Shown in pieces: positions 2,570 through 23,800 of a DNA stretch of 36,978 nucleotides; position 1 is the first letter of the stretch; each line of letters begins with the position of its first letter. Source of the DNA: Candidatus Omnitrophota bacterium (GTDB lineage: Bacteria; Omnitrophota; Gorgyraeia; JAHJTE01). The notes below the pieces were generated by a model. That model had not been told where the DNA came from, did no database searches, and saw only the letters and a program-made list of their open reading frames with translations. The DNA is taken from the NCBI GenBank assembly GCA_018830005.1, contig JAHJTE010000003.1, positions 265,674 through 302,651 of the forward strand, written 5' to 3'. The position numbers were made by a program, and so were the translations under genes.

Positions 2570-3169
2570 ATGAAATTCCACATCCCATTATTAGATGTGC
2601 TAAACTCAAGGACAAAAGTAAAGATTATGAAGTTCTTATTAACCCATGAGGCCTCTATGAGTGAAAGGGAAATAGCCTCGATTTTAAAAGTCTCACATAT
2701 GAGTATAAACAGGACTATGAGAGAACTTGCGGATTTTAATTTCGTAAACTTTATCAACGTTGGAAAAGCACATCTATGGAAGATAAATCGTAAAAGTTAT
2801 GCTTTTAAAATCCTATCGGAATTAATTCAGGGGGTTTCAATTATCAAAGAACCTTTAGGACAACTAAAAATCACTCTCTTGCGAAATTTACCTAAAACCC
2901 TAGTTAAAAAAGTTGTTCTTTTTGGTTCGGTGGCAAAGGGATTAGAAAAACCAAATAGTGACATAGATCTATTTATTTTGGTTAAAGATAAACAAACTAA
3001 GATAAAACTTGAACCTGCAATTGAAAAGCTATCAAATTTATGTTTCGAAATATTCGGAAATAGATTATTCCCTTACATCCTTACAGACCAAGAACTAAAA
3101 CAGAAGGAAAAATTAAAACTTATCTCTGAAATTGAAAAGGGTATTCAATTATTCCCGAAAAGGAAATAA
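2570..3169 (+). CDS. Winged-HTH fused to minimal nucleotidyltransferase (MNT), putative antitoxin
   Basis: N-terminal HTH (MSEREIASILKVSHMSINRTMREL). C-terminal polB-type NTase motif VVLFGSVAKG...SDIDLFILV. Confidence 0.85.
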   Translation: MKFHIPLLDVLNSRTKVKIMKFLLTHEASMSEREIASILKVSHMSINRTMRELADFNFVNFINVGKAHLWKINRKSYAFKILSELIQGVSIIKEPLGQLKITLLRNLPKTLVKKVVLFGSVAKGLEKPNSDIDLFILVKDKQTKIKLEPAIEKLSNLCFEIFGNRLFPYILTDQELKQKEKLKLISEIEKGIQLFPKRK

Positions 3170-3175
3170 TAAATA

Positions 3176-3583
3176 ATGGTCTCTAAAGTAAAAACTAAAG
3201 ACGTTTCAAAATCGCTATATGTTAATTTTCTTAAACGTGCCGAAGAATGTTTTCATGCAGCACAAAGTTCTTCCTCTGTCCAAGAGTGGAATGCTGCAAC
3301 AATTAATGCTATTCACTGTTGCATTGCGGCTTGCGATGCTATGTGTGTATATTATTTAGGCAAGCGCTTTACCGGTGAAAAGCATCAGAATGCAGTTGAT
3401 CTTTTTAAGGTAGTCAAAAGTGGCGATGAAAACTTAAACACAAATGCAAATAGAATCCTAAGAATTCTTCGCATTAAAAATATGGCAGAATATGAAGAAA
3501 GGCTGGTTTATAGATCTGAAGCAGAGAAAGTGTTAAAAGACTCTCAAAGGTTGCTTGAATATGTTAAAAAAGAACTACCATAA
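3176..3583 (+). CDS. HEPN-domain protein, partner of the MNT gene
   Basis: 135 aa, all-helical. FLKRAEEC..A, WNAATINAIHCCI.ACDA and RIKNMAEY motifs. Starts 6 nt after the MNT stop. Confidence 0.8.
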   Translation: MVSKVKTKDVSKSLYVNFLKRAEECFHAAQSSSSVQEWNAATINAIHCCIAACDAMCVYYLGKRFTGEKHQNAVDLFKVVKSGDENLNTNANRILRILRIKNMAEYEERLVYRSEAEKVLKDSQRLLEYVKKELP

Positions 3584-3675
3584 GTTGTATTTTTAACTCT
3601 CCTTCTTTAAATCTTCTAGACGCTTAAAAACATTATCTATGTTGTATCCCCTTCGACTTTCCTATGCACCATTTT

Positions 3676-4005
3676 TTAGCGATTAAGCATATCCTGCAAT
3701 ACTGAAAATGCTACTAAATTCACAGACTGTTCTCTTAAGGCAATGCCAGCGCGCCAGCCCTCAGGAAAATACTCCCTTGACCAGATAACGTTCCCGGCAA
3801 GAGTGAGAAAATCTCCTTTCTTTGGAACCTTAACCTTTAAGTCAACATCGCCTTCTAATGGCAGTCTATCCTTGCTGAATATACCCAATCCCTTTGCGCC
3901 CAAATCTCTTACCTCTGCCTCTAGCTCTGTATTAACCTTTTTTGAGCTAAGAAACAAAGGGAGTTTCAGCCCAGTCCTGTCAAAGTAACGACGTTCTTCC
4001 TGCAT
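3676..4005 (-). CDS. PilZ-domain protein (c-di-GMP receptor)
   Basis: RxxxR (RRYFDR) and DxGxxG (DLGAKG) motifs. Start moved to ATG 4003-4005 because AGGAGG lies upstream and the 4080 start overlaps the next gene. Confidence 0.82.
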   Translation of the reverse strand: MQEERRYFDRTGLKLPLFLSSKKVNTELEAEVRDLGAKGLGIFSKDRLPLEGDVDLKVKVPKKGDFLTLAGNVIWSREYFPEGWRAGIALREQSVNLVAFSVLQDMLNR

Positions 4006-4058
4006 GTTCCCTACACCTCCTTTTATATACAGACGATCTCGAAATGCTAAGTTGTGAC

Positions 4059-4439
4059 TTAATTCAAACCTTCCCACCACTTCTTCGTAAGTTCATGCTT
4101 ACAAAAATTATATGAATAGTTGAAAATTCTCTCTTTATCAATATCCCTTAAGCTATCAAACCTTACGCCTGTCTTAACATATAACTCTCTGGCCTCTGAA
4201 AATATATCTTTCTGCCAGAGAATCTTAGCTTTCGCACATATGTAGCGGTCTTCATCAGAGACATCAATAACTAATTCCAATTCTGCGTCTGGTGGATGTC
4301 TCTTCTCAGAAAGAAAACTCAAGCCACCAATGCTGATGTCACTTGCCTTGGCCTGATTTTCAGCTTCTTCTATTCCGGCCTGCTTAACACCTACACCTGT
4401 CTCTAGATTCCAGCGAGCATTCTGCCTTCTTTCCTGCAT
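4059..4439 (-). CDS. PilZ-domain protein (c-di-GMP receptor)
   Basis: MQERRQNAR (RxxxR) and DISIGG (DxSxxG), ending in GVRF. Start region resembles that of the neighbouring PilZ gene (GGTGTAG...ATGCAGGAA). Confidence 0.87.
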   Translation of the reverse strand: MQERRQNARWNLETGVGVKQAGIEEAENQAKASDISIGGLSFLSEKRHPPDAELELVIDVSDEDRYICAKAKILWQKDIFSEARELYVKTGVRFDSLRDIDKERIFNYSYNFCKHELTKKWWEGLN

Positions 4440-4497
4440 AGTCTACACCCCCTCAGCTATATTTTACACCCAAATAATGTTTTTTTGGGAATTTTTA

Positions 4498-5814
4498 TCA
4501 ACAAATTCCCACGAATACCTCCTTCATAACCACACTTATTGCACCAAGTGCAACTGCTTTTTTCTCGTCAATATCGCTAATTAACACCTTGATTGTCTCT
4601 GTCTCTTTAATATCAGCCAGCTTCAGTTTCTCTTGAAGCATATGTTTTAATTGCGGTAGTTCTTTCTGGACTCTTTTTGCGATATAGATAACATCCGGAC
4701 CTAACAGCTCTATCAATGCCAAGGCCCTATCTTGTAACTCTAATGTAACTAATTCTACCTTGCCTTCAATTTCCTTCTCAGGCTTATAGATATCCCCTGC
4801 TAATATCAGACTTAACAGATGCCTTGAGTGTATATAGAGAATATTCTTATTAGACAATTCGCGCAGCATCCACATCTGGGCATAAGACTCTAAATGGAAA
4901 TTCTCTTCAATAACTACCGGTAAGCTAAATTCTCGAAAGATGTAATCTTCAAAACCTGTATGTTGCTGCATATCAGCTAAGCCAATGCCAATACCTAAAA
5001 CCTGGCTTGCCTTTGAGCCTAACTTACCTATAATACTGCTGATAAGGCTCCTAAGCTCTGTCTCTATATCGTTTTTATCTCTAATCGGCTTTTTATCTTC
5101 TAAAATTATATCAAATGCCATATTTGCTACTAATGCCAGCATGTATCCAGCCTCAGCATTTACTTCTATACCCAAAATCAAACCAAAGTCCTTATTAAGC
5201 TCTAATAACTGGGCACGTCTGCCGCCGCTGGATAAATCCAGGCCACAATCAAAAACCAAACCTGCTCTCAAAAAGTCTTCAATAAACTTACCCACGCTTA
5301 CGACGTTCAGGTCTACTTGTTTAGATATATCTGCCTTGGTTACCGGGCCAAATCTTCTGATATAATCAAGTATCGCAAAACTCCTGCGTTCTTTATCCGC
5401 TAACTCAACAAGAGGCTGCTTTAGGAATTTTATCTTGCGAGTCTCTTTCTTCTCTGGAGTTACCTTTTGATAGATATATGTCAGATAAGTTTGTTTCTGT
5501 TTTTCATCAATCTGTATTATCTCCAAACCCACACCGCTTATTGAGTCCTGCTTTCTCTTAACCCAGGCAACCTGACAGATAAGGCGCATAGGCTTGCCTT
5601 CTCTATGAAGCTGTAAATCAAGATGCACTATATTGCCGATTGACTCTAAAGAAAGATTGTGGGAAACAAACAGACCGCCCTCAGAGATATTTAAGCTCTT
5701 AGCCTCGCTCCAGGCAGACTCGGTCCTATCCGAGAACCTGAATCTTACTGGCAGGGTCTCAGGCAAGCGCTGGAATCTTCTCTTTTCGTTGTGGGCTAAC
5801 GTATTATTAAACAT
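4498..5814 (-). CDS. PilZ-winged HTH-ROK (NagC/XylR-like) fusion regulator
   Basis: N-terminal PilZ (KRRFQR, NISEGG). wHTH GPVTKADISKQVDLNVVSVGKFIEDFLRAGLV followed by SSGGRR. ROK-like ILGIEV, GIGIG and LPVVIEEN, with a shortened C-terminus. Confidence 0.8.
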   Translation of the reverse strand: MFNNTLAHNEKRRFQRLPETLPVRFRFSDRTESAWSEAKSLNISEGGLFVSHNLSLESIGNIVHLDLQLHREGKPMRLICQVAWVKRKQDSISGVGLEIIQIDEKQKQTYLTYIYQKVTPEKKETRKIKFLKQPLVELADKERRSFAILDYIRRFGPVTKADISKQVDLNVVSVGKFIEDFLRAGLVFDCGLDLSSGGRRAQLLELNKDFGLILGIEVNAEAGYMLALVANMAFDIILEDKKPIRDKNDIETELRSLISSIIGKLGSKASQVLGIGIGLADMQQHTGFEDYIFREFSLPVVIEENFHLESYAQMWMLRELSNKNILYIHSRHLLSLILAGDIYKPEKEIEGKVELVTLELQDRALALIELLGPDVIYIAKRVQKELPQLKHMLQEKLKLADIKETETIKVLISDIDEKKAVALGAISVVMKEVFVGIC

Positions 5815-5826
5815 CTCTATTCATTA

Positions 5827-8800
5827 TTAGAGCAATCGTCCTAGGTAAAAATCTTCGATTATCGCAACAGCCTCCTGGTATGTGTCAACTATTCTATAAC
5901 GATTTAAATCCTCCTCAACTATAACTCCGGCAGGCAAAAGAGTCTTTTTAAACCAAGTATGCCAGGGCTGCCAGAAATCTCTTCCAAGTAAAACTACGGG
6001 AACCTGTTCTATCTTTTCCAGTTGCATCAAACATAATACTTCAAATAAAATATCCAATGTGCCTGTTCCACCCTGCAAGAAAACAAAACCCAAGCTACTA
6101 TGTCTGATAAGGGCCATCTTCTGTTCAAACGTATAGCTAAAGCCCAAGTTCATGCTCGCATGATTAGAATGATCTCTATTGCCTTTAAGCAATAAAGATA
6201 TGCATTGTGAATTAGTCCCTTTTACATCCTTATAACCCTGAGCGGCTGCAGCAGAAATACCCCTATGGCCTTTATAGATTACAGATATGTCACTATTGGC
6301 TAAACCTTTAGTTACCTGCCTTGCCTGTTCATACTCCGGACTAGTCTCGGAAACAAGTTCTGAACCTACAATACCAAAGGCAGGAACAACCTTCTCAATT
6401 CTCTTCAAAGTCCGATATAGATCTCTAATTACCTGCTCAATGTCAACATTATTATTAGCATTTAACTTCTCTAAACAAGCCTCATCTTCTAAATATCTAA
6501 GTATTCTCTGACTAGAATCTAAAACAACGAATAAATCTTTCGGCCTCTTTCTCAATAAACCCCGTTCAGACAAATCTCTCATTCGCTCTTCTAATCCTTG
6601 ATAGAATTTTCTACTAACATTATCAAACAAGACCAAGGGAAAATCATTGATATGGCCTTGATCCTTTAAGCTAGCTATTTCAAAAAATTCATCTAAGGTT
6701 CCAAAACCACCCGGCATACATAACGCGCCAACGCTTAAATCAATGAACGCTCTTTTGCGGGCGAATAAATACTTAAACATTAAACCTATATCAACAAATT
6801 CATTGCCTTCCTCCTTCGGGCATTGTATTTGCAAACCAACAGATGGCCGAGAAGTCGCAACACTGTTAGCCGCCCGCATCACTCCCGGGCCTCCGCCAGT
6901 AACTATAGAGTAGCCATTACCATCTAACTTCCTTACTAAATCTTGAGTATCATTATAAATCGAATCAGCCTCACCAACACTAGCTGAACCAAAAATAGAT
7001 AATGCTGGATGTATTCTTCTAATTTGATTTTCATACTGCCTTAATTCTCTAACAATATCCTGGATAAGTCTTGAAAGTTTAGCATCATTTAACTGCCCTA
7101 AAAACTGAACTAAACTTCCAGGCATATCTACACTTGGCCTGATAAATATCCACAATGTATCATATTTATCTTTGACAGTGAGTCTTATAACTCTCCAGCC
7201 GCGCTGGGCCATAAGTTTATATACCCGGCTAATCTCCTCATATCTTTTATCATCCAGAACCGCAGGAAAGAGATGAAAATGTACATCAATGCCGGGATAA
7301 CTATCAAAAACTTCAGCCAGTAACTCTGCGCGCTGCCTCTCTGACTCTGAATTTCCTAACTTAAAGCCCATATCCTCAGGATAAAGGTATCTAATAGCTG
7401 CATCCGAGACTATGATTGTTGGAGATTTGCTGCCTTCAATAACTTTATGCATAAAATCGATATCATAAATATCACCAGGTCCATCAGGTGGGAAATAATT
7501 AAAACCCTCATCAGAATAATCAGCGATGTTCCCCGCTAAATCTATTGCTATATATTCTCCAGCATAATCCTCTTTTCTTAGCGCCTCATATAACCTAAAT
7601 CTAGTTTCCGGACCGAGTTCAATTATAGTAGCTGCGTAAGCCATAGCCTTAATTAAATCTTTAGACAAAATCTCCCAAGTCAACGGGTCTGCCACATCAG
7701 TTATGCTGTTAAGTGTATATGTCTCAATATCAGCGGGTTTTTCTGATACCCCGCCGTTGCGGGGGTCGGAAGGCTGAAATACCCTAATTATTCTGCGGAT
7801 CTCTTCAGGTGTAATAAGTCTGTCTCTTCCTTTTCTTAATTTTTCTGACATCTCTGAAACTACAGGATCGAGCTCCTCGCTTGGACCCGCAATTTCCTGG
7901 CCGTATTGCCTTAACAACTCTAAGACAAAAATGCTGAATCTCATCCAAGGCCCCTTTTTAACAATCATTAGTGCCAATCGAAAAAGCCTAGTGTAGTCAA
8001 CCGACTCTAATTGCTCTATAATCCACTGTAATTGAGTTCGTGCGCAATAGTGGTGCTCTCTTGTGCGTAAAACTAGAGCAAAATCCTTTTTGAAACGACC
8101 ATATTCTAGTATGACTTGAGACTCTTCGATATCTTCGCTCCAACCTATTTGTTCAAGAATAGAAAAGCCTCCCAAATCGCTTATAATTTCACTAATGAAG
8201 CAGTCACCAGAAAAAATATTATGGTCAAGTTCATGGGCGCATGTACTTACAAAATAACTAGTAGCAAAACTTGTACCCTTAATATAGGGAATGCCAAATA
8301 TAAAATAAGAAGACGCGTTATCATACTTCTCACTAAAACAAGCTTGAATTAGAATTTTATATACTAAAAGCCTATATTCTTCTTTACTAATTAAAGAGAT
8401 TAGAAGGTTCTGACGAAATAGTAATATTGATAGCAGAACTTTCGTAAGTATCTTATCTCTGTCTTTACTAGCTAAAATAGCATCCATCTTGCCTAAGCCT
8501 ACTAATGTTTGTCTTGCTCTTTCTAAGTATCCATCTATATTAGTTCCTTCCATATTGATAAGATAAGAGCATTCTTCCTCTAAATCCTTAAGCCAAACTA
8601 AATCTCTTTCATTAGCTATCAAGATATTTAAAGAATTAATGAACCATTCTTCATTATTTTCAAAACCTTTCCCTACTATCTCTAGGTCAATATGCCTGGC
8701 TAATCTTTCAAATTCATCTATGCCGAACTTATAAATACGCACTAAATTATGAGAAAAAGCGGCATTATTTCTACTAAATGCGTAACGCATCCTATCTCTT

Positions 8801-11800
8801 CCAAAAAAGTTAATCAATCTAGCACATGTCTCTTTAAACTCTTCTTCAGTCATCTCTGAATAAACCCATCTGAATGTATAAGCACTCATAAAGTAATCCA
8901 AAGAGCCTTGCTGTGGTAAATATATTTCTGTATCATTCCCACTCCTATACAACCCCAACCCTGCATCATGCAGCATCATCCTTATTCTCTTACCCACCGG
9001 TGACTCTCCCACCGGCTCTTGGTAGTAGAATACGTGGCCGTCGGTGGAGCCGGGAATATCGCCGTCACGAGAATCAAGAAGTGAGTCTTCATAAGTCTTA
9101 ATTATCTCTAACTGTCGCGAGAGGAGCCAATGCTCGCAGATATCGTATTTATCAGTATCCATTAGCCTTAGATCTCTGATTTCTGTCTCAATCCTTGCCT
9201 TTAGCTGACTTAAGGCATTTGGCGTCTTTCGTCTTCTTCCTCTTGGGGTGAAAACTTCCTTTTCAAGCAACTCTCCTACAATCTTGCGTTCATCGCTATT
9301 AAGTTTCCTGCACGCTAATGCTCTATGATTAAGCTTCCTGCGAGAAATTTTACCATCGCTATTTGTTAAAAATAAAAAACCGGTTACATTATTGTCTCCT
9401 TGAGTATACACTCCCAATAAACCCCAATTCAATCCAGCAGCCCTTGCTTGAATCTTTATCATTTGACCGTCAAGTTTATATGATATAGACAAATAGGACG
9501 TTATTGTAGATTTGCTGAATAATCTTACAAGGCAAGCCCCAATTCTTTGGTGGGAAGTAGCCTTTCTTTCGATATAACCTTCGGGAAGCTTACTTGTAAA
9601 TCTGGAATTAAACCAATCATTCAATTGTTCCTCGGTACTTAATCGCTTCTTCAGCTCAAGTATTGTCTCACCAGGTTGCATTTTCTCTATACTTTTAACT
9701 TTTCCATTTTCTAATTCCACAAATTCTCTTCCTATTGGTACTTCACTTTCGTTAAAAACAACAATAACGCAATAATTATCTCCTCTCTCATCAATCCCAG
9801 TGTAGCCTTTTCTATTAGCATATTTTTTGTAACCACTTAGAGCGTTCATCGTTGGAATAATATAGATAGCTCCATTCTTATCAATCCAGATAGGCAGCCA
9901 TTGCGGAACCCTGCCTTTGACATTTGAAGCAACAAAAGCCTGCCAGTCTTTTCTTGCCTTTTTAACATTCTTATTATCTTCTTTTTCTATTTCAAGAATT
10001 TTCTTTGCTTCTCCTACGTCGAATTCTCTCTTCAGTAAATACTCTCTTGCCTTCTTAATCCAATTTCCGATAGTTAGATCTGAGTATTTTTCTCCATCCT
10101 GATTTCTTATACCCATATCATAAAGTATGTATGTGATCTCCTCTTTTGTGTGAGGATTTCCATCTTCTAAACCACAAAAGAAACTAAAGGCCAAAGCCTT
10201 ATTCGGCTCTATAAGAGCATAATCACCTAAATATTCTATTAATCTAGCTCCTCTTTCAGTCACATCCTGATCCCCATCTTCCTTAGCTTCCTTTAATTTA
10301 TATGCCTCTAGAGAAATTTCGCTTAAGAACATCTCTCCAGCTAGTAGCTCTCCTCCCTCAACTCGTCTCTCATCATCAAGACTTACTTTATCCCGCTCTA
10401 TACTCTTACCAATAAACGCAGTATATATGCCGTCTTTAATCATAGGGGCTAGAAATGTGCTTAATTTTGTATCCTGGGTGAAGTCATACCTTTTCTTGCC
10501 CTTTAAAATTTCTGTCAGGCAACAAATTCCTGCAACAAGTAATTCCTCTTCATCATAGAGGCCTAAAAGAAACCCAATTCTGGGGGTTGAATGAATTATA
10601 TTCTGAATAAGCCCTTTATTTTCCTCCACAAATTGCACTAAAGCCTCCTGGTTGCCGATTTCGATTTCTCTATACAAACGTCTCCTTCTCTGTTCTCCTG
10701 GCTCTATATATCTCAGAAGTAGCTCTCCTGCATCTCTGACTCTTAAAGGAGATTGGTTAAGTAACCAAACAAAAGCATTCTCTGCTTTCTCTACTTTATA
10801 CTTGCCTGCCAACTCTCTAAAAACATCTTTCAGCGTGCTTACATAATGGCGTCTCTTCTTGCTAGGCAACTTGCTTTGCCTGATAATCTTCTCTAAAGTC
10901 CTAAATAGATAAGAGTATTTTGCTCCTCGGCTCATCTCTGGAGTTTGATCCTGCTCTCCTTCAACATCAATCTCATAGTTCAAAACCCAGTCAATATATC
11001 TATCTATAGCTCTTACCAGCGCCTCCAGATCGCCCCTTCTAAGCCACTCTTGCAGCATCCCTCCTGATACCCCGCCGTTTTTGGAGGCAATCGCTGCCTT
11101 TCCTTCTTTCATATTTTTCCTATACTCTTCAATAATCTCCTCCTGTGAATCAGGAATACCTAAATCGCTCAAGAAACTTTCGTCTAATTCCTCAGATCTT
11201 TTTTCGTAATACAACTGAATAAATCTCTCAGTCAAATATAGTCTGCGCGCTGGACTCTTTAATATTTCATACATAATGTCATCAGGATGAGGGCATTGTT
11301 TGGCGATAGCAATAAAATCTGGCTCTATCTCTAATGTTAGCTGATAGAGTAAATAAGGCTCGAATGCCAGAAAATAAATCAAAGGATCATTTTTTGAAAT
11401 ATCAATGATAGTGGTAATATCTTCATCGTAAACATTTCCAAAACAAGGAATTGCCGTGCAGTAATAATATACATTTCCGTCACAATTTACAGTCACTGTC
11501 TGTGGTAAATAACAATAATCTACGTCTTGTCCATAATAATCTGTTCTTTTTCCATTAATAAAATTTTCTGTTGTGCCATAATCCCCGAGATAACATTCCT
11601 CATTTAAAAGTTCAGCGAATCCTAACCTGCTAACAAAATCTACACCTACAATAAATCTATACTCTCTACGATTTTTAATTAGGGTCCAGTAGATAGTTCT
11701 AACTACTTTCTGTTTTTTTCCATTTCGGCCTCTTATAGATATCTTCTCTTCTACTTTAGTTTTAACAGCAAAACCTCTCCTTTTTAATTCAGACTTCAAA

Positions 11801-14800
11801 ACACCTAGGCGTTTATGAACATCAGGTTCATGAAGAGAACGTATTACTAAAGAAATTTCTGGAAAATCTTCTGCAATTACTTGAACTAAATTGGCAATAT
11901 TAGAAATAGGTATTGTTCTCTGATGAAAGCTATCTAAGGAGGTATTTAAAATAAAGTAATAATCTGAAGTGGCATCTGTTTTAGCTTTTATAATTTTATA
12001 TACTTCGGATAAACTATCCCTTGCAGACCCTGGTGTACTCGCAAACTTAGCATTTGTTTGTAAGATATTGGGTTTTCTGCTATTTTCTAACAAAAATAAA
12101 ACATCCTCTTTAGCGAATGATAAAGGCTCTCCACCGCCAATACATATCTCTTTGAACCTGGGATCATTTTCTGCAAATTCCAATAAGTCTCTATACATCT
12201 TCTCTTTTTGCTTCCAATTTAATTTTCTCTGTGGTTTGCAATAAACAAACAGGCAATGAGGACACCAGGTATTACATTCTCTAGTAACCTGAAATGTAAA
12301 CATGTGCTTTAGAAATGCCAAAGGGCCTACTAAATCAACTTTGGCGGAAAACCTTTTTACAACTTCTCTTCTTTCTAAATCTACGCCTTTGCCAGTGAGG
12401 CAGTAAAAATACTTTTCTCTCCTCATTAATGCCTTTAATCTTCTTGGGTAATCATTACTACCATCCTCAGTATTCTCATTATCTGCACTATACCCCGGCC
12501 AGTGCGCCTTACGAATTGGACCAAAGAAGATATCGGTTGTAGTGGGTGTTTCTTGAGAGTGGTGATGTCTTTTATTTTGTGGGTCTTCTGCATCTTCTTC
12601 GTCATTATCTTTTTCGGAATAAACTAATTTCGCATCTGTAGCCATTAAGATATGTCCATTAAATATATTGCAATCGTAATGGCCTTTTTCATCAAAGATA
12701 TATTTAATACTTTCGGGAATTTCAATTGACTTCTCAAACGTCCTGGTACTGATGAAGGTACCATTAACATAAACAAAGCTATCATCTTCTGCAAAAACAA
12801 CACACATAAGCTCTCTGTCCTCCATATTTCTTTCATTCATGTAATAAAGAAGTGTCCAGAGAAGCAGTGCCTTATCTCTGTGACTTCCAGTTACAAAGGC
12901 CAAGACCTCATCCGGCAACATAATCCTATCAAGGCTGCCAAATACAGACTTAAATCCTTGGATATTTCTGACAAATCTTATCGCATCATCTAAGCTGTAC
13001 ATAAATCTCGCATTATCTTTTGTGTGTGTTTCTTCTAAGGCCTTGGCTGCGTAAACTTCAGGGTATTTAACCTTAAGGCTTCTAAATGCATACAATGCAG
13101 CTTCATACTCAAAATATTCTTCGGCAAGATTAAATGCGTATTTTTGCAAAGTTTCTGCTGAATCAAAATCTTGAATATTGATTGGTGCGCCTCTTCTATC
13201 AATAAATCTTATCCCAGACAAATCTGGTATATTAAATTCTGCTCCAAAGAATTCGCTTAATCTTTTATAAAACTTAACTACTGTATCTTTGGACATAGTT
13301 GAAATGCCTAATACAGAATTAAAAATGCCGCTAAAGGAAACGAAACTGTCAGTACATGGAGCTGCAAATTCTCTATACCAATCTATATTCTCGCTTAATT
13401 CTTTAAACTTCTTCTTAGAATACCAATATAAATTAGAAAATACGTATCCTTCATCTATATCTATGAAGACCGCAAAATGTATTTGTGTGCCAAATATAAA
13501 TATTTTTTCAAATGGAACCTGAGTAAATATCGATATTAATGATAAAAATGCTGCATCTAATGTGGCAAATGATGCACATTTACCTTCTGCCTTATTATCA
13601 TGCCGTATCCTTCTATAAGCATGCATTAATTCAATAATTTCATTCTTCATGCGTGCCCTATAGCCCTGCCTATAGGCTGTTGTTGTACTGAATCCTCCGT
13701 AGCCTCCTTCATCAACAGAGAAAAACTGGTCTAATCTATCTATGATTTGCCCCACTACTTCATCACCTAAAGCGGCCTTTTTAAAATCAATAGTAGTCCA
13801 ACCCCACCTACATCCTTCAGGCCGGTCAGATGTTGAGAAAGTATTTACATAATAATGTTTTAAATGTCCTTCTAGACTTCTTAATGATTGCGCTGTACTC
13901 CTGCCTTTAGTCTTTCTTTTTATTATCTTCCAGGCCAGAGGCGACATCATATTAGCTAGCCAAGCTGAAAGCAATAGCTCAGGATGTGCAGCAATCTCAA
14001 AATAATCCCATGTAACTGCCCAAGATAATCTTTGCTTATAGATATCTGACATTAATACTTCTCCTAAACGCAGAATCTCATGTGATTCATATTCAAAAAA
14101 CAACTCAAATATCAAATGTCTATCCTGAACATTGTAATCCTCCAAAAGAATCTCAAAGGCCTTTTTTAGTATAGGCAATAATACTGGTTTGCTATCAATT
14201 ATTGATACTAAACTTGAAACTAAACATGGAAAATCCAACTCAATGATTCCAAACTTGCATTCCCTAATCTGCTGTAAATGGTATTCAAGATACGCCTTCA
14301 TAATCCTTGCCAACTCATTAGCATTTCCCTGCTTCGCCAACCTGTATAGCATCCCTCCTGACACCCCACCGTTTTGAGGAGAATTACCGCAGACTTGCTC
14401 AGAAAGTAATCTTTTCTTCAATTCTAAAGCTAGTTTATCTTTAATAGCTCCTCTAGTGGCATTCTCTTTTTTTATTTTCTTAATTGCTAACTGCAGCTCT
14501 TTTCTAAAAATAGCGACTTTTTTATTGTCTCCTCTAATCTTATCCGCTAGGGCACCTAAAGTATTTCCTTCTTTAAGAATATTAAACAATTCCTCATTTG
14601 AAAGAGTTAACCCTTTTTCTAAAATTATATCTTCTTCCCAAGACCACTGACCTCTCTTTTTAATCTCTCGTATCAAGATTTCATCTACTTCTAAAATAAT
14701 TATCCACTTTAAAAGAGTATCATAGTAAGGATGTAATTCTGAATCTCTCTTTCTTATCATCCCCTTGTTTACCTTTGTAATCTCAGAATCCTCAAGGTCT

Positions 14801-17800
14801 TTGCTAGATAGCTTGCCTTTATAAACATGCCCGGTATTCCCATCTAGAATTAACCAACTTCCTATCTTTACCTCTGCATTTGTTCTAGAAAATTTAACTG
14901 TGTTACTATGTATTTGTAAATTGATCCGTGTAAGATGAGGAATAATTTTTTGTGCACCACGCATTCGCACAACAATGTAGTCTGCAAATCCGCCTCCATA
15001 TGAAATTGCTCCTGAGATACGTCTTTCTATTGCCTCAGGAGTAATAGTTTGTAATCTCTCAAATTCCATAACATTAAATATTACAGCTATGCCTTTACGG
15101 CCTTTTGGATTAGTACAATCAGTAATAATCGGTCCGCTAACAATACCAGGCAAGACTATAATTCCGCTGGCTATTGGTTTTCTTTCAAGGTCTTTTCGCA
15201 GAACAGGAGATTCTAGATATGTTTTTGTCCACCATAGGTGTTCAAGACGCACTGAGGAGGGTACATCAAAATTAGAACAATCTTCATACTCTTCCTCTCT
15301 AAACCTACCTAAAGCATCCTCTTCGGATATAAGGCCTTCTTTCACAAAGTCCAATAAAATCCTTACCCTTGCAAGCGGGGTAGAAAATTTCTCGTTTCCT
15401 CTTGTTTGCAATATAAACAGTTTTCCATTTTGAATAGTAAATTCTATATCCTGAATCTCATAAAAATGCTTTTCAAGCAACAAGGCAAATTCCTCTAATT
15501 CAAGATATTGTTGAGGTAAATACTTTTGCAAAGCATCAAGTCCCTCTGGTCTATCCCATTTACATAATATGTTATCTACTATTTTTAACCTGCCTACGAC
15601 CTCTGAACCTTCTGCATTAAACTTAAAACTTCCGTAAATTCCTTTTTCTCCGTTTAGAGGATTCCTTGTAAAAATTACCCCACTGCCCGACTTTTCATCT
15701 CCTATATTACCAAAAACATAGGCCTGGATATTACATGCAGCGCCACAAACAAAATAAGAGGATTGTATAACCGACTTTACCGCTAGCATAAGCTGTCTTT
15801 TGGGGGTAGGGAATTTCTTACCTGTCTTTTGCTCAAAAAGTCTCTCTGCTTTTAAAACCATCTCTTTAAGCTTATCTAGAGAAATAAGTTTGGGTAGTAT
15901 GTCATACCTATCCATATAATAATTTTCCCGTAGCGAAGGTATCTCATCCACAATCTTATTTACCCCCTCATCAAACCCAGCATCATCTTGGCTGACACAT
16001 TCTGCAATATAAGACATAAAATATAACAAAAAGTCTAAATACGCCCTATGCATATCACCTATTTCTCTTCCGTAAGCATCCAATGTTATTCTGTGTAACC
16101 CTATCTTTGTATACGTTTTATATCTACCTGGCTCGCTTTCTTCGGCACCACTTCTAACAGAAAGGAAAAGCGGATTCTTCAAATCCCCAAATTTCTTTAC
16201 ATGCCCAAAAACCTTTTTCGTTCGCCTTTCTATTTCTGAAACACCTTGAAATATCAATTCACTCACTCCTTTTGGTAAGCTATTTCTATTTTCATCGTAT
16301 CTTCTGACAATCTTATTTGGTATGGTAAATCCCGGTGGCACTGGCAAATCTAATCTTGCCATTTCTGCCAAGTTTGCACCCTTTCCTCCCAAGGCTGATC
16401 TCATGCTTGCCCTACCACATGCTTTACCCCCGCCAAAATAATATAGGGCTCCTGAAGTCTTTTTTCTACTGGATTCTCGCCGCAAATGCGCCACACGGAC
16501 TGGACCAAAGAACATATCAGCTGCAGTAGGTGCTTCTGGGAAGTGATGATGTCTTTTAATTTGAGGACTTTCTACATCTTCATGTGTTGATCTAGCAAGA
16601 TGGGAGTTATTGGAAATAAGTCCAAGCTTACGTGTAATACTCTTATAATTACGGCTAATATTACTAGGAGAACAGTTAAACTGCCTGGCTATCTCTTCTT
16701 GATTCATATTGATTATCCCTGACCTGTGTAAGGCAGCTAGGATAAACATCTGTTTATTCCTTTCAGAGGCATTTATAGGCTTTAATAGTTCTTTTAGCCT
16801 TGTTTCTGCTTCTTGTTGGGTTAATTCAGGTAGTTGTTCTTCTGGGATTAGTTTATCTAATAAAGTCTGTGGCCTTCTTCCACGTTCATCTTTCTCGTTT
16901 AGGGATCTATCTAAAGAACTAGTATTTTCTCGCTTTTCCCTCCTTAGCTCAGATCTTGCCTTATCATCTATAGAGCCCATGAATCTTTTATAGGCATAGG
17001 CACCAATTGTCTTATCCCATTTCTCTGGATCAAAGCGTGCCACAATACCCGGGATAGCCTTAAGGCAGGCAGAGAGACGCTGATCAGAATCTAGGTTGAA
17101 GTATTTTAATCTATACTCTTTGGATATTTTCTTTGCAAGCCATTCCAGAGAATACATAAGTGCCTGGTAAGCTGCTAGGTTTCCTTTCTGAACCTCTTTG
17201 GCTAATTTAACCTGTTGTTCTAGACTCATATCTTCGCTTTTTACCTTTGTCTTTCCATTTAAAATATCCTTGACTACCTTAGGATTATCATAATGCTGTG
17301 TGAATTTCTGATATACACAGCTTTCACAACACGGCTTCATGCCTTGGCTCTTAACGAAATCAAGCCAGCTGCCGTAGATTCTACGGACTGCCTCTACCAT
17401 GCCGCCATAACCAGCCTCTTGCCATTGACTGCTGCTTCTTACGTCTTTGATCTCTGTAGGGGGATTCCTAAAGGCCTCAGAGAGGGTTTGTTCGGTCCAT
17501 TTGGGAATACGGCCTTTTTTCTCAATCGGCTGTATGTCTTGGCTCTTAACGAAATCAAGCCAGCTGCCGTAGATTCTAAAGGTCACCTTTACCATGCCCC
17601 TATAACCAGCCTCTTGCCATTGACTGCTGCTTCTTACGTCTTTGATCTCTGTAGGGGGATTCCTAAAGGCCTCAGAGAGGGTTTGTTCGGTCCATTCCTT
17701 TCGCTCAATTGGCTTTATACCTTGACTTTCAAGGAACTTATGCCAGCTGCCGTAGATTCTAATAGCTACCTTTATTATGCCCCTATAACCAGCATCTTCC

Positions 17801-20800
17801 CATTGACTGCTGCTTCTTACGTCTTTGATCTCTGTAGGGGGATTCCTAAAGGCTTCAGAGAGGATTTGTCTGGTCCATTTGACAGGAGGGCCTTTTCTTT
17901 TATTTTCTGAAGATCTTTCTTCTTTCCGATAATGCGCCTTACGAATTGAACCAAAGAACATATCAGCTGTACTAGGATCTTCTGGAAAGTACTGGCGACT
18001 ATTTCCTTTTACTTTGCCGGATGTTTTCTTCGGGCCGACTGATAAAGAATTATTATTTTTAGAATTCTGTATAAAGTAATTTAATAAGGCACGCCACCGC
18101 TCTATATCTAATCTACCTACCAAAGATCTAGGTAATGGTTTTTTCGCGTAATGACTGATCACGCACTTGCTAACTTGGGAATATTGAATACAAACTGAGG
18201 ACTTCTCTAGGTTAAAATGTACACCGATTTCCCTGTAGCTCACTTCTTTTCCACAGAGTCGTCCCATAATACGAATTTTGAAGATTAATCTGTCTCTACC
18301 AGGATTCCCGCCACGTATTTTTACGGGTCTTAATAATTCATCTAAAATATATTCAAGTTCTTCCTCACACATAGCAAGAGAAGGTTGTTCTAGGCTTTCG
18401 TCTAAAGGACTCTCTCTTCTTCTGGAAGCCTTCCTCCATAAATCAATTCTTATCTGTCCAAATTTTTTATAAGCAAGGCTCTTAAGATTTGAGCCGTTAG
18501 GTCTATCAGGATTGTAATTCGTAATTATTTTTGGAATTGCTTTATCAAAAGCTCCAAGAATATCCTTACAGCTAAATGTCCATTGCCACTTATATGCTAA
18601 TGTTTCTGCGTAGAAGTAAAGCAATTGCCTTAAGGCATCTTGCGCTTGTCCATCGCCCTCATGAGCTGCTCTAGCCAGGGCATTCTGCTCTTCTAGTTTT
18701 AATTTATGAATCGTTATCTTACTGCCTGGTTTAAGGATAGCCTCTGCCAGACGGGCTGCTTGTTTTCTAGAACGTCTTCTTTCCCTTTCCTCTTCTTTCC
18801 AAACTGACAAGACTTGTTCTGCCAGCCTTTCTGACCGATGCTTATTTTCTTTCTTGCCTTTTAAGTTATCTAATTCATGCTTTAGTATTTCCTTTAAAAG
18901 CCCTACTCTCTTAAATTTAACAAGAAGCAATATCAAGGTAAGGGGTATATAAATACCACTTTTGACCTTGCCCTTTGACTTTTTAATTGTTACTGCTGCT
19001 AAAAATATCTTTAATGACTTATACCATACAGATGGCATCTCTCTAGGGTCTTTTTTAGGATCAGGGAGCACGATAAATACTCCTCTTTTCTCCAACGCCT
19101 TTAGAATCTCTTGATAAGGCTCTATTTGAACGAAAAAGTTGCTGTAGAGATTGCGCACGCCAACTACACGCCCATCATCCCAGGCTGTTTCTAGCTCCTC
19201 ATAAGTCCTGTCTTCATACTCCTTATACATCTGGCCGTCTGCTTTAAGCACACCCATGCCGCAGGGTCGGGGGACTGAATGGCCATTGGAAGCTTTATAA
19301 ATTTTGATTATTTCTAATTGTCTCAATAAGAGCCAATGTTGGCAGATATCATATCCATTGCCTATGCTTTGTCTTAAATCGCCAACTTCCCCTTCAATCG
19401 TTGATTGCAATTTTTCTAAGGCCTTTATACCTTTGCTTCTCCTTCCCCTTACAGCTAAAACTTCATCCTCAAATAAAGCAAGTATATTATTCCGTTCTTC
19501 CTTATTAAGCCTACTAAGAATTAACAAGTTATTATTAAGTTTATTATGAATAAGTCCTCCTTTATTATTGTCTTTCCGGATTATGCCCCCCACGACTACC
19601 ACATCTCTTAGAGTAGCCACTCTCCATAAGTGCCAATTAAAACCACTTCCCTTTACCTCTACCTTGAGTTCTTGGCCTATTAATTCAGGGGGTAGCGAAA
19701 TATGTACCGAACTATTATTTGGAACTGGCACTGCTATGCCGGCACCTCTTCGGCGGCCACCACTATAAACAATCCTTACCAGTGCCTCTTCCGGAGGTTT
19801 CCTTTCAAAAGGCAATTGCATCCAATTAGCCCACTTATCCCTCACTCTCAACCTTTCTTTAAAATCAGCTATTCTCTGGCTGATTTGCATATCTAAACAT
19901 TTAATAACCTTACCTTTTTTGACTTCAACATAATGCCTACCTATGGACGTGCCTCTACCATTAAAAACATTAACAGCACAACATCCTTCGCTAATATCAT
20001 TTTTATCAATATCCACAAACACCTCTGCACCAGCATGTTCTTTATAATCAGTTATTTGCAGGTTTTTAGATATCCAAATGTATCCTGCTACGCCAACTAA
20101 GATATATAGCCCCAACGGCGGATCTCCCTTCATGTTAGACTTAAAATAGCTATCCCATTCCCGCGCTATTTCTTTCTTGTTATCTCGCCGCTTTTTATCT
20201 TTTTCGATAGTCTTCTTTGCTTGTGCATTGCCGCATAATTTGATAAGCAGCTTTTCTTTCACAAAGTTAAACCACAACCTGATAGTCTCTCCTGTAAATT
20301 GATCTCCATTTTCTCCTTTTACGCCTAATCCAAAAAGGTAAGCAGCGATTTCCCCGTATGAATAAACTACATCGTCTTCTAAGCCAAGTTTCATGTTAAA
20401 GGCCATAACACGATAAGGAAATTCAATAGATAAATCTGCTAAACATTCTCTTGCCTTGGCTACAATTGAATCATTTCCTCTATCTAGCATACTTTCTAAT
20501 TGGTTATGTCGGGCTAGCGAAGCTCTTTCTACTTCAAACTTAGACAACGAACAAAAAGCTCTTGATTGCCACCGGTCTGTTTTCTTAAAGCTCGCCTCAG
20601 CATTAAAGTCTAGAGAATATTGCTCCTTTAATCCGTTCAAAATCAAACCTCGTAAAGCTGGAACAGCATATGAGCTAAAATTAAAACCGGCATCAAAAGC
20701 ATATCTTTCATCTGTTATTATGTATTGCAAAAAATATCTCCCCATCTGAAGTATATCTTCCATAGTAGTAAACTTTAGAAACGCTTTAATGGCAGGAGAC

Positions 20801-23800
20801 CTTTTGACTATCCAACGAATAAGTGGATCATTTTCTTCGCAAAACTGTGCTGAGGCCGCTTTATCACCTCTTCTTACCTTTCTAATTAACATCCTCCTTC
20901 TCAGCTCATTAGTATCAATATTTGCTATTATGGTTGCCAAGTTAGGGTATTTCTTAAAAACCTCTTTAATTGAATAGCTCGAAAGTCTCAATAATATCCT
21001 TTCGTTTCGCTCAAAGGCTAACCTAATAGTTATTGCCAAAAGAATATCTTCCTTTAGAAAAGTCCTGAGCCTTTGCGCTTCTACTAACCCCTTGCTATCC
21101 TTGACGCTTAATTTGTATACTGTCGTATTAAAATTTGCGCTTCTTAAGTCCTTTAGCTTGACTGCTAATACAGGCAGGCCTGATAATTTATCAAACCAAA
21201 GCGCCAAAGGTTCATTCTTTATGCCGATATTGCGGTGAAAATTGCAATCTACGCCATCAACGCGGTGCTGTCTTCTTAAATGCCCTCTTGAATTAGTGTA
21301 TGCGCCTTCGGATCGGATATACTTTGCGCCGTATTTATTAAACATCTCTTTTATCTCATCGGGACTCGGAAAGCCTTTCTTGGTGCTATTTAGAACATTC
21401 CCATGTTCATCAAAAGTAACAGCATACTCAAATACATCTATATCTGGCCGCAATACTAAATAGTCTTTAAGTTTCTGGCAATATAATAGCCAAAATTCTC
21501 CATTTACTTTTTCAAACCAAGCAACCATTCTATCGCCTTCTTCAAATTTATCTCTATCCAAGATATAAAAAACGAAATTAAACCATATTCCGACCATTCC
21601 TTTTCTTTCCTTAGCCTTTAAGTTCATATGCCTGACTACAGAATGGTCATCAAGCTCTCTATAGACTTCGGTCTTTCTATCGCCAATACATATTAACTTA
21701 TCTTCTTCTGTAATGTTTCTCTGCAAATATGTAAGCCTATGGCTTTCTAGACTTGTTTCAAATTTATCTATATTGCTTACGGCAATGAACTCTAAGGGAG
21801 CTGTATCTACATTAAATACCAGAATTAAATCATCGACGGTACCAGTTTTTCTCAATTGCTCATTGCAAGGAAAATTAAATCTGCCTTGGTTATCAGTAGA
21901 TGTTATTACAACATTTTTAGTTAATTTTATGTTCTTAGGGAACTGAGCCCTATATACGGAAATTAAGTTTCCATCTATATCAAATATCTCGCTGTAAATT
22001 TCTCCTTGCCTAAGGTAATCCTGAAACAGACCCTTAAGTTCACTGAATTGTATTGTTTGGTTCTTCCATTTAACATTTCCTTCTCTATCTAGGCTAAATC
22101 TTTCATTGACGCATAGATTACCTAAGATACGCGCATAGCCCTTTAGATATTTAGTTGCGATGTTTCCTTTCCCCCTTAAATCCTCAACCGCTTTTAAACA
22201 TTTATCGATATACTCAGAGTCTTCAGAGCAGTCTTCAAGTATTAAAGTTTTGCGAATCAATTTTTCTCCAGCTGAATTCTTAGTAATCAATATAGCTGTC
22301 TTGGCATGCGCAAATAGTACGGATGGACTTTTGCCTAAGACTCTTAGTAGTCTACCATGTCTATTTACAGTCACGCCTAAGACATATAAACCGCTATGGC
22401 CTTCATCATCCATAAGCCTATTTATCATTTCGTCTCTTGATTCAGGATATTTTTTGAACTTGTTACCTGCTCTTAATGCAGGAAGCTTTCCTAATTTTTT
22501 CCCTGTTTCTGCATCAATAAAGACTAACTTGTCGTCCTCGGCCAATTCAATCAGATCCTCTCTTGTTAATCCTGCTCTTAAAGATCGAGGCTGGACATCT
22601 GCCAGCTGTCTGTAAAATCTTGGTTTTAAGCCTAACAATATCTTCCTGGCAAACCTATCTATCTCATAATTGCTGCCGTCAAGGAATGATTTTAATATTG
22701 GTATGAATTCCTTCATTCGGTCGTCTCTTTGGGCTTGAATTAGGGCGTTTTGGATAAGGTGTTTGAGGGGTGGGTTTGCTTTTTGGGTATGCTGGGTGTC
22801 TCCCAGACAGGTTAGGCGCTTGAGGGAAGCTATGTGGTCTGACTGCCATGCCTCTTGGACCTCTTTAGCCAGGGCTTCTGATTCGGTTTTATCTTCTTTT
22901 GCGCCTTGTAGGTGGCTTAATTCGTAGTTTATGACTTTCTCGGATACCGAGAGTCCTAATAAGGTTACGGGTATATAGGCGCCTGCTTTGACTTTGCCCT
23001 TTGCCTTGTGAATTGTAACGGCATTTAAGAATATATCCTGGGTAAAATACCAGATGTTTGGTTCTGTTGTGCCTAATATAAAGTAGAAATTCTCTTGTTC
23101 TAGTGTCCTAGCTATCTCAGGGTCTATCCGGTCTTTTACCTTTTTGGGAAGGTCTTTGTATCTAACTACATGTCCTCCGGCCCATGCTTTCCCTAGCTCA
23201 TAATAAGTCCTGTCTTCATACTCCTTATACATCTGGCCGTTGGCTTTGAGTACCCCCATGGCGCAAGGTTCCAGAATAGTAGCGGTATCCATATCCTTAA
23301 ATCTCAAACTAGCAAAATTGGAACCCTTCTCCCTGGCCATATTAATCTGTATACACGCAGCAAGCAGTCGTAATTCTGGAATATAATACGTACGATTACT
23401 CTGATAACTATCAAAGTCGTCCTCTAATCTGCCTAAGGTTAAGATTTTATTGGCAATTACTTTTAGAATTATCTTGAATAAATTATAACTGTTGCCATTT
23501 AGGCAGCCATTATCAACTAAGGCGAAGGCACGGCTTAAATCATATTTTATTTCACTTCTTAAGCTTTCTATTCCTGCTGGAATTGTTCCCTTCTTTCTTC
23601 TAATCTCTTTCTTAATTAAGGCTAATCTATTCTCTAGCCTATGAATGGTTCCGTAATCTAATACATTGGCTAAATTAAATGTAAATTCTACCTCCCCGAC
23701 TATTTTTAGAGCTCGTTCGAATTCAGTAGGATCTGCTTTTCTTAATATAGCTTCAATCTGTTTCAAATGTAATTCTATGTCTCCTAATAAACCTTGTTTC

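Follow-up and report, generated by a model that had tools for sequence, protein, structure and literature searches.

Viral polyproteins and ubiquitin-like proteins are processed by papain-fold proteases that take Gly-Gly as the P2-P1 residues of their sites, and in bacteria the transglutaminase-like cysteine proteinase LapG cuts the giant adhesin LapA in the periplasm at a di-alanine site, (T/A/P)AA|G. Iyer et al. reportedly proposed in 2017 that the 'polyvalent proteins' of phages and plasmids undergo autoprocessing. Many uncultivated bacteria are now found to encode proteins of at least 10,000 residues; in the giant multi-enzyme proteins of Omnitrophota many transmembrane (TM) helices are interspersed along the chain (bioRxiv 10.64898/2026.06.07.730766, 2026 preprint). 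Here we describe a gene of this size in a 36,978-nt stretch of a Candidatus Omnitrophota bacterium (contig JAHJTE010000003.1, positions 265,674 to 302,651; hereafter the window), which comes from a metagenome-assembled genome (MAG) of a groundwater metagenome. The open reading frame (ORF) starts with GTG, occupies window positions 5827-36846 on the minus strand (as do all modules and motifs named below) and comprises 10,339 codons, and its translation carries three copies of a glycine-rich motif, NGGVSGGML or its first half NGGVS. We suggest, at a probability of about one half, that NGGVSGGML is the core of an inter-module linker cassette, acting as flexible hinge and helix cap, that has spread by duplication or recombination within the gene.

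Translation of the ORF bore out the motif positions given in a preliminary description of this DNA: NGGVSGGML begins at amino acid (aa) 7492 (window 14347-14373, copy 1) and again at aa 8590 (11053-11079, copy 2), and NGGVS alone stands at aa 9697-9701 (7744-7758, copy 3), all three copies being direct repeats in one frame. An exact 16-mer, CTGATACCCCGCCGTT, stands at 7743 and 11064, and a version with two mismatches at 14358, always on the same strand, and the claim that the exact pair agrees even at synonymous positions is likewise correct, with identical codons at 5/5 residues of copies 2 and 3 (P = 5e-4 under the ORF's own codon usage; 5 vs 1.7 expected when the per-residue codon figures are summed). 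Three matches to this 16-mer at two or fewer mismatches were reached in 0/100 shuffles, with 0.01 expected, and from the composition of the protein NGGVS is expected 0.006 times. In fact NGGVS is the only 5-mer found three times wholly outside the tandem repeat of aa 6317-6522; LDFVK also has three copies, but two of them fall inside that repeat. Copies 1 and 2 match at 24/26 nucleotides, and all three copies use AAC, GGG and TCA, minority codons that serve for 20% of Asn, 13% of Gly and 20% of Ser, respectively. The residue before the Asn of the motif is Q, K or R and the residue after it is Gly, and four-glycine runs are otherwise rare in the protein, most of the others lying within recognisable enzyme or unannotated domain sequence. 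The recurrence of the motif is far above chance, and the codon data support a likeness of the copies at the DNA level that exceeds what selection on amino acids alone explains.

Ordinary local alignment of the 120-aa flanks detected no similarity between copies. When the register was fixed on the motif, we observed that the next 24 residues of copies 1 and 2 are alike (score 25, p = 6.5e-4 vs random in-register pairs), the upstream flanks of all copies and both flanks of copy 3 being unrelated. The flanks had been described as unrelated, which holds for the upstream sides and for copy 3 and fails for the downstream side of copies 1 and 2, where the common 24-residue helix had been missed. Because of these additional residues the repeated unit is better seen as a cassette of ~33 aa, comprising NGGVSGGML and a 24-aa helix start (cassette 1, window 14275-14373, aa 7492-7524; cassette 2, 10981-11079, aa 8590-8622), with a five-residue remnant in copy 3. 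The three copies stand between unrelated neighbouring modules, and searches with hidden Markov models (HMMs) found no further degenerate copies of the cassette within the protein. One similarity was set aside and is not used here: the copy 1 helix resembles an internal helix of the radical-SAM tail of the protein P0020 (score 52), with a phmmer E of 0.13 among 150 fetched proteins.

The motif had also been placed at module boundaries. A full HMMER scan of aa 7441-8640 against 1.84 billion representatives recovered two families, an uncharacterised one that we call domain X (window 12667-14034, aa 7605-8060) and the radical-SAM module (11101-12444, aa 8135-8582), with 8 aa between its end and copy 2. 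Relatives of the radical-SAM module are free-standing proteins of ~600 aa together with several other giant proteins, and the C-termini of the free-standing homologues map to aa 8564-8616, bracketing copy 2 (8590-8598) and thereby locating it at a natural protein end. Most relatives of domain X are free-standing proteins of ~480 aa, with N-termini at aa 7558-7603 and C-termini at aa 8025-8068 (a longer outlier, P0004, ends at aa 8159), so that copy 1 lies outside domain X and ~100 aa before it, together with the spacer between them. This spacer (14035-14358, aa 7497-7604) has no homologues, and no match in the scan covered aa 7441-7600; upstream of copy 1 lies a pyruvate phosphate dikinase-like module with ATP-grasp and swivel domains (14797-16446, aa 6801-7350). 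An AlphaFold2 (AF2) model of aa 7340-7620 predicts coil at aa 7481-7496 and a helix from GGML onwards, followed by an all-helical bundle with a predicted local distance difference test (pLDDT) of 56-82, the region upstream being below 50. Copy 3 sits between a sigma-factor-like module (9082-10707, aa 8714-9255), a paralogue of aa 5310-5853, and two tandem LOG/SLOG domains at the C-terminus (5830-6999, aa 9950-10339), amid sequence without homologues, and no homologues were found for either aa 9256-9960 or aa 7180-7620. The boundary position is therefore supported for copies 1 and 2 by the ends of free-standing homologues and the predicted coil, with copy 3 left in surroundings that have no homologues.

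A comparison with relatives adds to this picture. The radical-SAM module is most closely related to that of P0001, a protein of 4,754 aa from MAG GCA_043812495.1, which has PHP, zincin-like, HNH-repeat and radical-SAM modules in common with the giant protein in a different order. In P0001 the same hydrophobic linker stands before and after the radical-SAM module, in the forms GVVLACALPLDLFLLVPVFGMIIAG and GVVLGCFLPDLFLLLPLVGMILDG, and its two copies use identical codons in the core (CTTCCC..GATCTCTTC). From the radical-SAM tail (LGIP..EY..N) a gapped alignment continues through copy 2, reading KNGGVSG-GMLQEWLRRGDLEALVRAIDRY here and KAGVVLG[CFLPDLFLLLPLV]GMILDGYQNEDLEVLTKAFREAF in P0001, and needs a 13-residue gap exactly over the hydrophobic core of P0001. 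The 27 residues after GM[LI], the anchor itself excluded, score 24, the 4th highest among the 4,727 positions of P0001; across all fetched proteins this score is attained at 40/88,419 positions. Since the two ends of the linker align with NGGVSGGML and the core is gapped, the motif looks like the P0001 linker minus its hydrophobic core, a positional homology that the preliminary description had also missed. In a Kyte-Doolittle scan none of the three copies coincided with a hydrophobic segment; the single peak in their vicinity is at aa 7532, in the spacer ~40 residues past copy 1, and the hydrophobic segments of the giant protein are confined to aa 355-2900.

Repeated linker cassettes are general in related giant proteins: a repeated linker pair of its own occurs in each of P0026, P0012 and P0057, and an 11,221-aa neighbour of P0001 has its own repeated TM-linker cassettes (GD..LGILG..AGLCL and SP.WD...YWDK). 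The linkers had no matches to the NCBIfam models for sorting signals (PEP-CTERM and similar). On JBDRMG010000020.1 (93-24357 in our locus L020) the gene for the 11,221-aa neighbour follows that for P0001, its start overlapping the P0001 end by 89 nt; possibly both belong to a single gene of ~16,000 aa that a frameshift or an assembly error has divided. Within the present gene a further pair of hydrophobic linkers, at aa 342-400 and aa 1453-1511 (window 32506-35820), reads ...LFSFE(I/T)(S/G)HTQ(G/E)ILTD(T/I)LQPQA and makes up a third linker-cassette family.

The second family came from the other short exact DNA repeats and had not been reported in the preliminary description. The motif ...KRHHH..E.PT..D(M/I)FFG(P/S)xRxAH, for short DMFFG, begins at aa 6274, 6746 and 8076, its copies showing exact DNA identity over 16-20 nt. 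DMFFG-1 (window 17890-18027, aa 6274-6319) contains PSTADMFFGSIRKAH; DMFFG-2 (16447-16611, aa 6746-6800) contains KRHHHFPEAPTAADMFFGPVRVAH and directly precedes the dikinase-like module; DMFFG-3 (12457-12621, aa 8076-8130) contains KRHHHSQETPTTTDIFFGPIRKAH and lies between domain X and the radical-SAM module, directly ahead of the latter, with its start at aa 8076 falling at the end of domain X. This motif alternates with NGG: DMFFG-1 and DMFFG-2 are followed by the dikinase-like module, NGG-1, the spacer with domain X and DMFFG-3, and then come the radical-SAM module, NGG-2, a second spacer with the sigma-like module and an unknown region, NGG-3, and a further unknown region with the LOG pair. 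Each of the two recognisable enzyme modules, dikinase-like and radical-SAM, consequently has DMFFG on its left and NGG on its right. As we read the sequences, DMFFG-3 would sit where the upstream linker of P0001 sits and appears to keep its P..D(L/I)F(L/F) core.

Outside this gene the motif was not encountered in a related context in any of the collections searched. A profile of the two 63-aa cassette regions had no matches among 5.8 billion proteins, no close relatives of aa 7441-8640 were found in species genomes, and among the genomes and other giant proteins searched no homologue has NGGVSGGML at equivalent boundaries. The 185,579 species genomes searched with a degenerate DNA pattern yielded 4 matches, JGI metagenomes yielded 11 and viral contigs none, roughly the number expected by chance; these are out of frame, belong to an acidobacterial cytochrome family (CHSNGGVSGGMLH) or fall in a single protein that, judged by eye from its motif, is probably of the acetylglutamate-kinase family. 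The cassette is most likely private to the giant gene and a stripped-down version of the linker cassettes of its relatives. Several familiar glycine motifs were considered and dropped. An intein or HINT element was rejected on the lack of any HINT/intein Pfam match anywhere in the protein and on the Asn standing after Q, K or R and before Gly, where such an element would end in His-Asn with Cys, Ser or Thr next; a C39 double-glycine leader, on upstream residues that depart from the leader consensus and on the lack of any C39 or ABC domain, in the protein as in its neighbours; and resemblances to a LOG glycine loop (GGxPGxM) or to an LSGGQ-like ABC signature, on the lack of Pfam/NCBIfam support around the motif.

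Taken together we propose that the NGGVS half would form a glycine-rich flexible hinge that closes one module, and that the GGML half would cap and start the first helix of a helical spacer of ~100 aa ahead of the next module. The cassette would be the positional homologue of the hydrophobic, TM-like linkers of the relatives after loss of the hydrophobic core, tethering modules in solution instead of anchoring them to a membrane. All three copies would derive from one cassette, duplicated or recombined within the gene, copy 3 being a remnant truncated after NGGVS, and we propose that the shared codons reflect this history, possibly with short-tract gene conversion. Several observations pull the other way. 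A simple hinge needs no nine invariant residues, and it leaves unexplained why copy 3 keeps an exact NGGVS with identical codons between two unrelated flanks; of all its features, it is the identity at codon level that a plain hinge fails to account for. The linker alignment involves a single relative, P0001, over a short stretch; the AF2 prediction for aa 7340-7620 used a single sequence and is of low overall confidence (mean pLDDT 48), and none of the collections searched had a motif-bearing orthologue. Module boundaries of one giant protein are marked here by short cassettes conserved to the codon level and, if our reading is right, a soluble glycine-rich version can stand in for a relative's hydrophobic linker. 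As it stands this is a useful anatomical marker and not a new mechanism.

The motif may in principle be a DNA homology point, where in-frame direct repeats of 16-26 nt recombine to add, delete or swap modules and gene conversion keeps them alike, the protein being merely a tolerable linker. Codon identity above expectation at the motif counts in favour of this idea, and the other linker islands of the gene behave similarly; in short linker islands 75 codons are the same vs 42 expected at 102 identical residues (singly 23 vs 11.6 for the hydrophobic pair at aa 355 and 1466, 17 vs 10.2 and 13 vs 7.6), whereas old domain duplicates are near chance (19 vs 17.7, 107 vs 93.5 and 79 vs 66). The same codon pattern is seen in the two linkers of P0001, the three copies repeat directly without a change of frame, the order of the PHP, zincin-like, HNH-repeat and radical-SAM modules differs between the two proteins, and the radical-SAM block that they have in common is linker-bounded in both. 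From the codons it would seem that the cassettes are either younger than the surrounding modules, or homogenised by conversion, or selected for the nucleotides themselves. Nevertheless we consider recombination at the motif a rather improbable main cause. The contigs of four metagenomes that contain the organism are colinear and identical here and show no deletion or duplication junction at the repeats, although assembled contigs hide rare variants. The exact identities, 16 nt for copies 2 and 3 and 24/26 nt for copies 1 and 2, are at or below the length usually needed for efficient homologous recombination, and the homology of copies 1 and 2, and of copy 2 and P0001, ends ~25-30 residues past the motif and not at it. 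A recombinase with matching inverted or att-like sites is lacking, the sole hint of one being a sub-threshold PF07508 match at ~aa 5495. A shufflon or other invertible or excisable segment was rejected on similar grounds (direct repeats only, no cognate recombinase, no alternative junctions in the four contig sets). A signal in the RNA would also preserve nucleotides, either as ribosome pausing between modules for co-translational folding (through rare codons, GGAGGG or a hairpin) or as an internal start at the AUG of GGML. Minority codons are indeed retained (AAC, GGG twice, CTA/CTG), GGAGGG stands immediately 5' of the AUG in copies 1 and 2, where an upstream CUCCU or CCUCC can pair with GGAGG, and copy 3 has a potential hairpin, CCCCGC-AACG-GCGGGG. 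However, folding energies are no better than those of shuffles (z = +0.31, -1.37 and -1.25), GGAGG occurs 32 times in the ORF vs 40 expected and is judged not depleted, and the gap from GGAGG to AUG is 1 nt, as against 5-9 nt in nearby genes with a recognisable Shine-Dalgarno sequence. Copy 3 has neither GGAGG nor AUG, and no Rfam family matches; with shuffle-like folding and the wrong spacing the hairpin and internal-start ideas were rejected, and an RNA-level role is very improbable. Coincidence or an assembly artefact without biological meaning can hardly account for the motif. Some exact 16-mer pair in a window of 37 kb has a non-negligible chance (by our estimate ~0.2), but this specific 16-mer and NGGVS have the low expectations given above (0.01, even with two mismatches allowed, and 0.006), and the copies have frame and strand in common and stand at boundaries. 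As for an artefact, NCBI MAG GCA_043815545.1 (contig JBDRIX010000012.1) has the identical sequence with the gene likewise called at 10,339 aa, and the window is identical in an independent contig of the Logan assembly of SRR6514730. In other samples, contigs of low coverage run colinearly through copies 2 and 3.

Cleavage, which the preliminary description had named as a candidate next to module shuffling, would make the motif a polyprotein site cut at (Q/K/R)-N-G-G|V-S, and perhaps also at S-G-G|M-L, by the protein's own domain X or zincin-like modules, freeing enzymes of module size. The element common to 3/3 copies is only NGGVS, which has the length of a protease recognition site, and we count the Gly-Gly preference of papain-fold proteases in favour of this idea. 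Moreover, Cys7757 and His7790 of domain X are invariant in 26 family members, its AF2 model is confident (pLDDT 86, predicted template modelling score 0.90), and its best matches in the PDB are LapG, CPR-C4 and other transglutaminase-fold cysteine proteases (probability 0.97-0.99). Zincin-like modules with HExxH are common with P0001 and P0105, and the bracketing of the dikinase-like and radical-SAM modules by DMFFG and NGG also counts in favour of cleavage. Against this, the homologous giant proteins have hydrophobic linkers and not the motif at equivalent boundaries, the Foldseek E of domain X is ~0.07 with coverage of ~135-180 of 486 residues, the zincin-like copies here read YELSH and HELDN instead of HExxH, and selection on the amino acids of a cut site does not explain identical codons. 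Sequence searches with domain X gave no match in Pfam or the PDB. Cleavage stays conceivable through the protease-like domain X, which lies between copies 1 and 2 and whose Cys and His are invariant; nothing links this domain to the motif, and on balance we regard cleavage as unlikely. Both cleavage and recombination are compatible with the linker-cassette reading and the three are not mutually exclusive. A bolder combination, to which we give a low probability, would be that giant modular genes in such uncultivated bacteria of groundwater grow and reshuffle by in-frame recombination at nucleotide-identical cassettes, with NGGVSGGML as the right and DMFFG as the left border of exchangeable enzyme modules, and that these borders are perhaps also cut by the protein's own LapG-like protease, yielding a processed polyprotein. 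Were the cassettes cut or recombination sites, this would account for the assembly of such genes and tell whether a single chain or many separate ones do the work.

Other features of the gene and its surroundings are recorded here for completeness. Three near-identical tandem repeats of ~62 aa (195 nt) occupy aa 6317-6522 (window 17343-17838), are common with P0001 and have a weak match to the Pfam 'homing endonuclease associated repeat'; a 205-aa plus-strand ORF over them (17293-17910) is probably spurious. A sigma-70/ECF-like domain at aa 6565-6741 (16824-17151) exceeds the cut-off of NCBIfam TIGR02937, and sigma-70/ECF-like or region-4-like segments also occur at aa 14-160, 842-995, 5310-5853 and 8714-9255, a jackhmmer search failing to find further sigma-like modules; sigma-factor modules embedded in a multi-enzyme chain are unusual. 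The zincin-like module has two copies, at aa 4516-4651 (22924-23298) and aa 5850-6000 (18847-19296), joined by an exact DNA repeat of 38 nt (at 19201 and 23203), and since their YELSH and HELDN correspond to HELAH and HEVGH in P0001 and P0105 they may be inactive. PADLOC defence models found nothing relevant. Directly downstream of the giant gene (2570-5814) are three genes for PilZ-domain proteins, receptors of cyclic di-GMP (c-di-GMP), and a nucleotidyltransferase/HEPN pair resembling a toxin-antitoxin module; beyond a gene for an AAA_14/DUF4143 ATPase the heptamer GTCGTGT forms a short tandem array (472-501). A contig of 1,632 nt at ~9x genome depth from the same metagenome matches window 8556-8589 over 34 nt with 4 mismatches, and may be a multi-copy element or stem from another abundant organism with a common short motif.

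How, then, does the cassette compare with known systems? Similar to generic Gly/Ser linkers it is rich in Gly and Ser, predicted to be coil and placed between independently folding units; those linkers, however, are not conserved in sequence or codons, whereas NGG is invariant over nine residues in two copies. With the Gly-Gly sites of papain-fold polyproteins it shares a GG-type motif between the units of a very long protein that holds cysteine-protease-fold and zincin-like modules, but its P4 residue is polar or basic and not the Leu of viral LXGG sites, it stands at only 3 of many boundaries and is absent from the homologues, and the fold of domain X is of the LapG/transglutaminase type, unlike that of viral PLpro. 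With LapG and LapA the likeness lies in the modelled structure, LapG being among the best structural matches of domain X and the substrate in both cases presumably a giant protein. The site here is NGGVS and not di-alanine, and LapG is a separate protein under the control of LapD, which is not present here, the downstream PilZ genes being the sole and circumstantial link to c-di-GMP. The closest counterparts are the linkers of P0001 and its 11,221-aa neighbour, along with the interspersed TM helices of Omnitrophota giant proteins mentioned at the outset. The linkers are likewise short conserved cassettes that recur where one module meets the next, the neighbouring modules being unrelated. Unlike the P0001 linker, the NGG cassette has no hydrophobic core of ~13 residues and so cannot span or enter a membrane, and its exact NGGVSGGML occurs only here among the giant proteins searched. 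Similar to copy 2, the P0001 linker stands in the same place after the homologous radical-SAM module, its ends (K-x-G-x-V-x-G ... G-M-[LI]) and the helix that follows align with those of the cassette, and in its two copies, as in ours, the core codons are shared.

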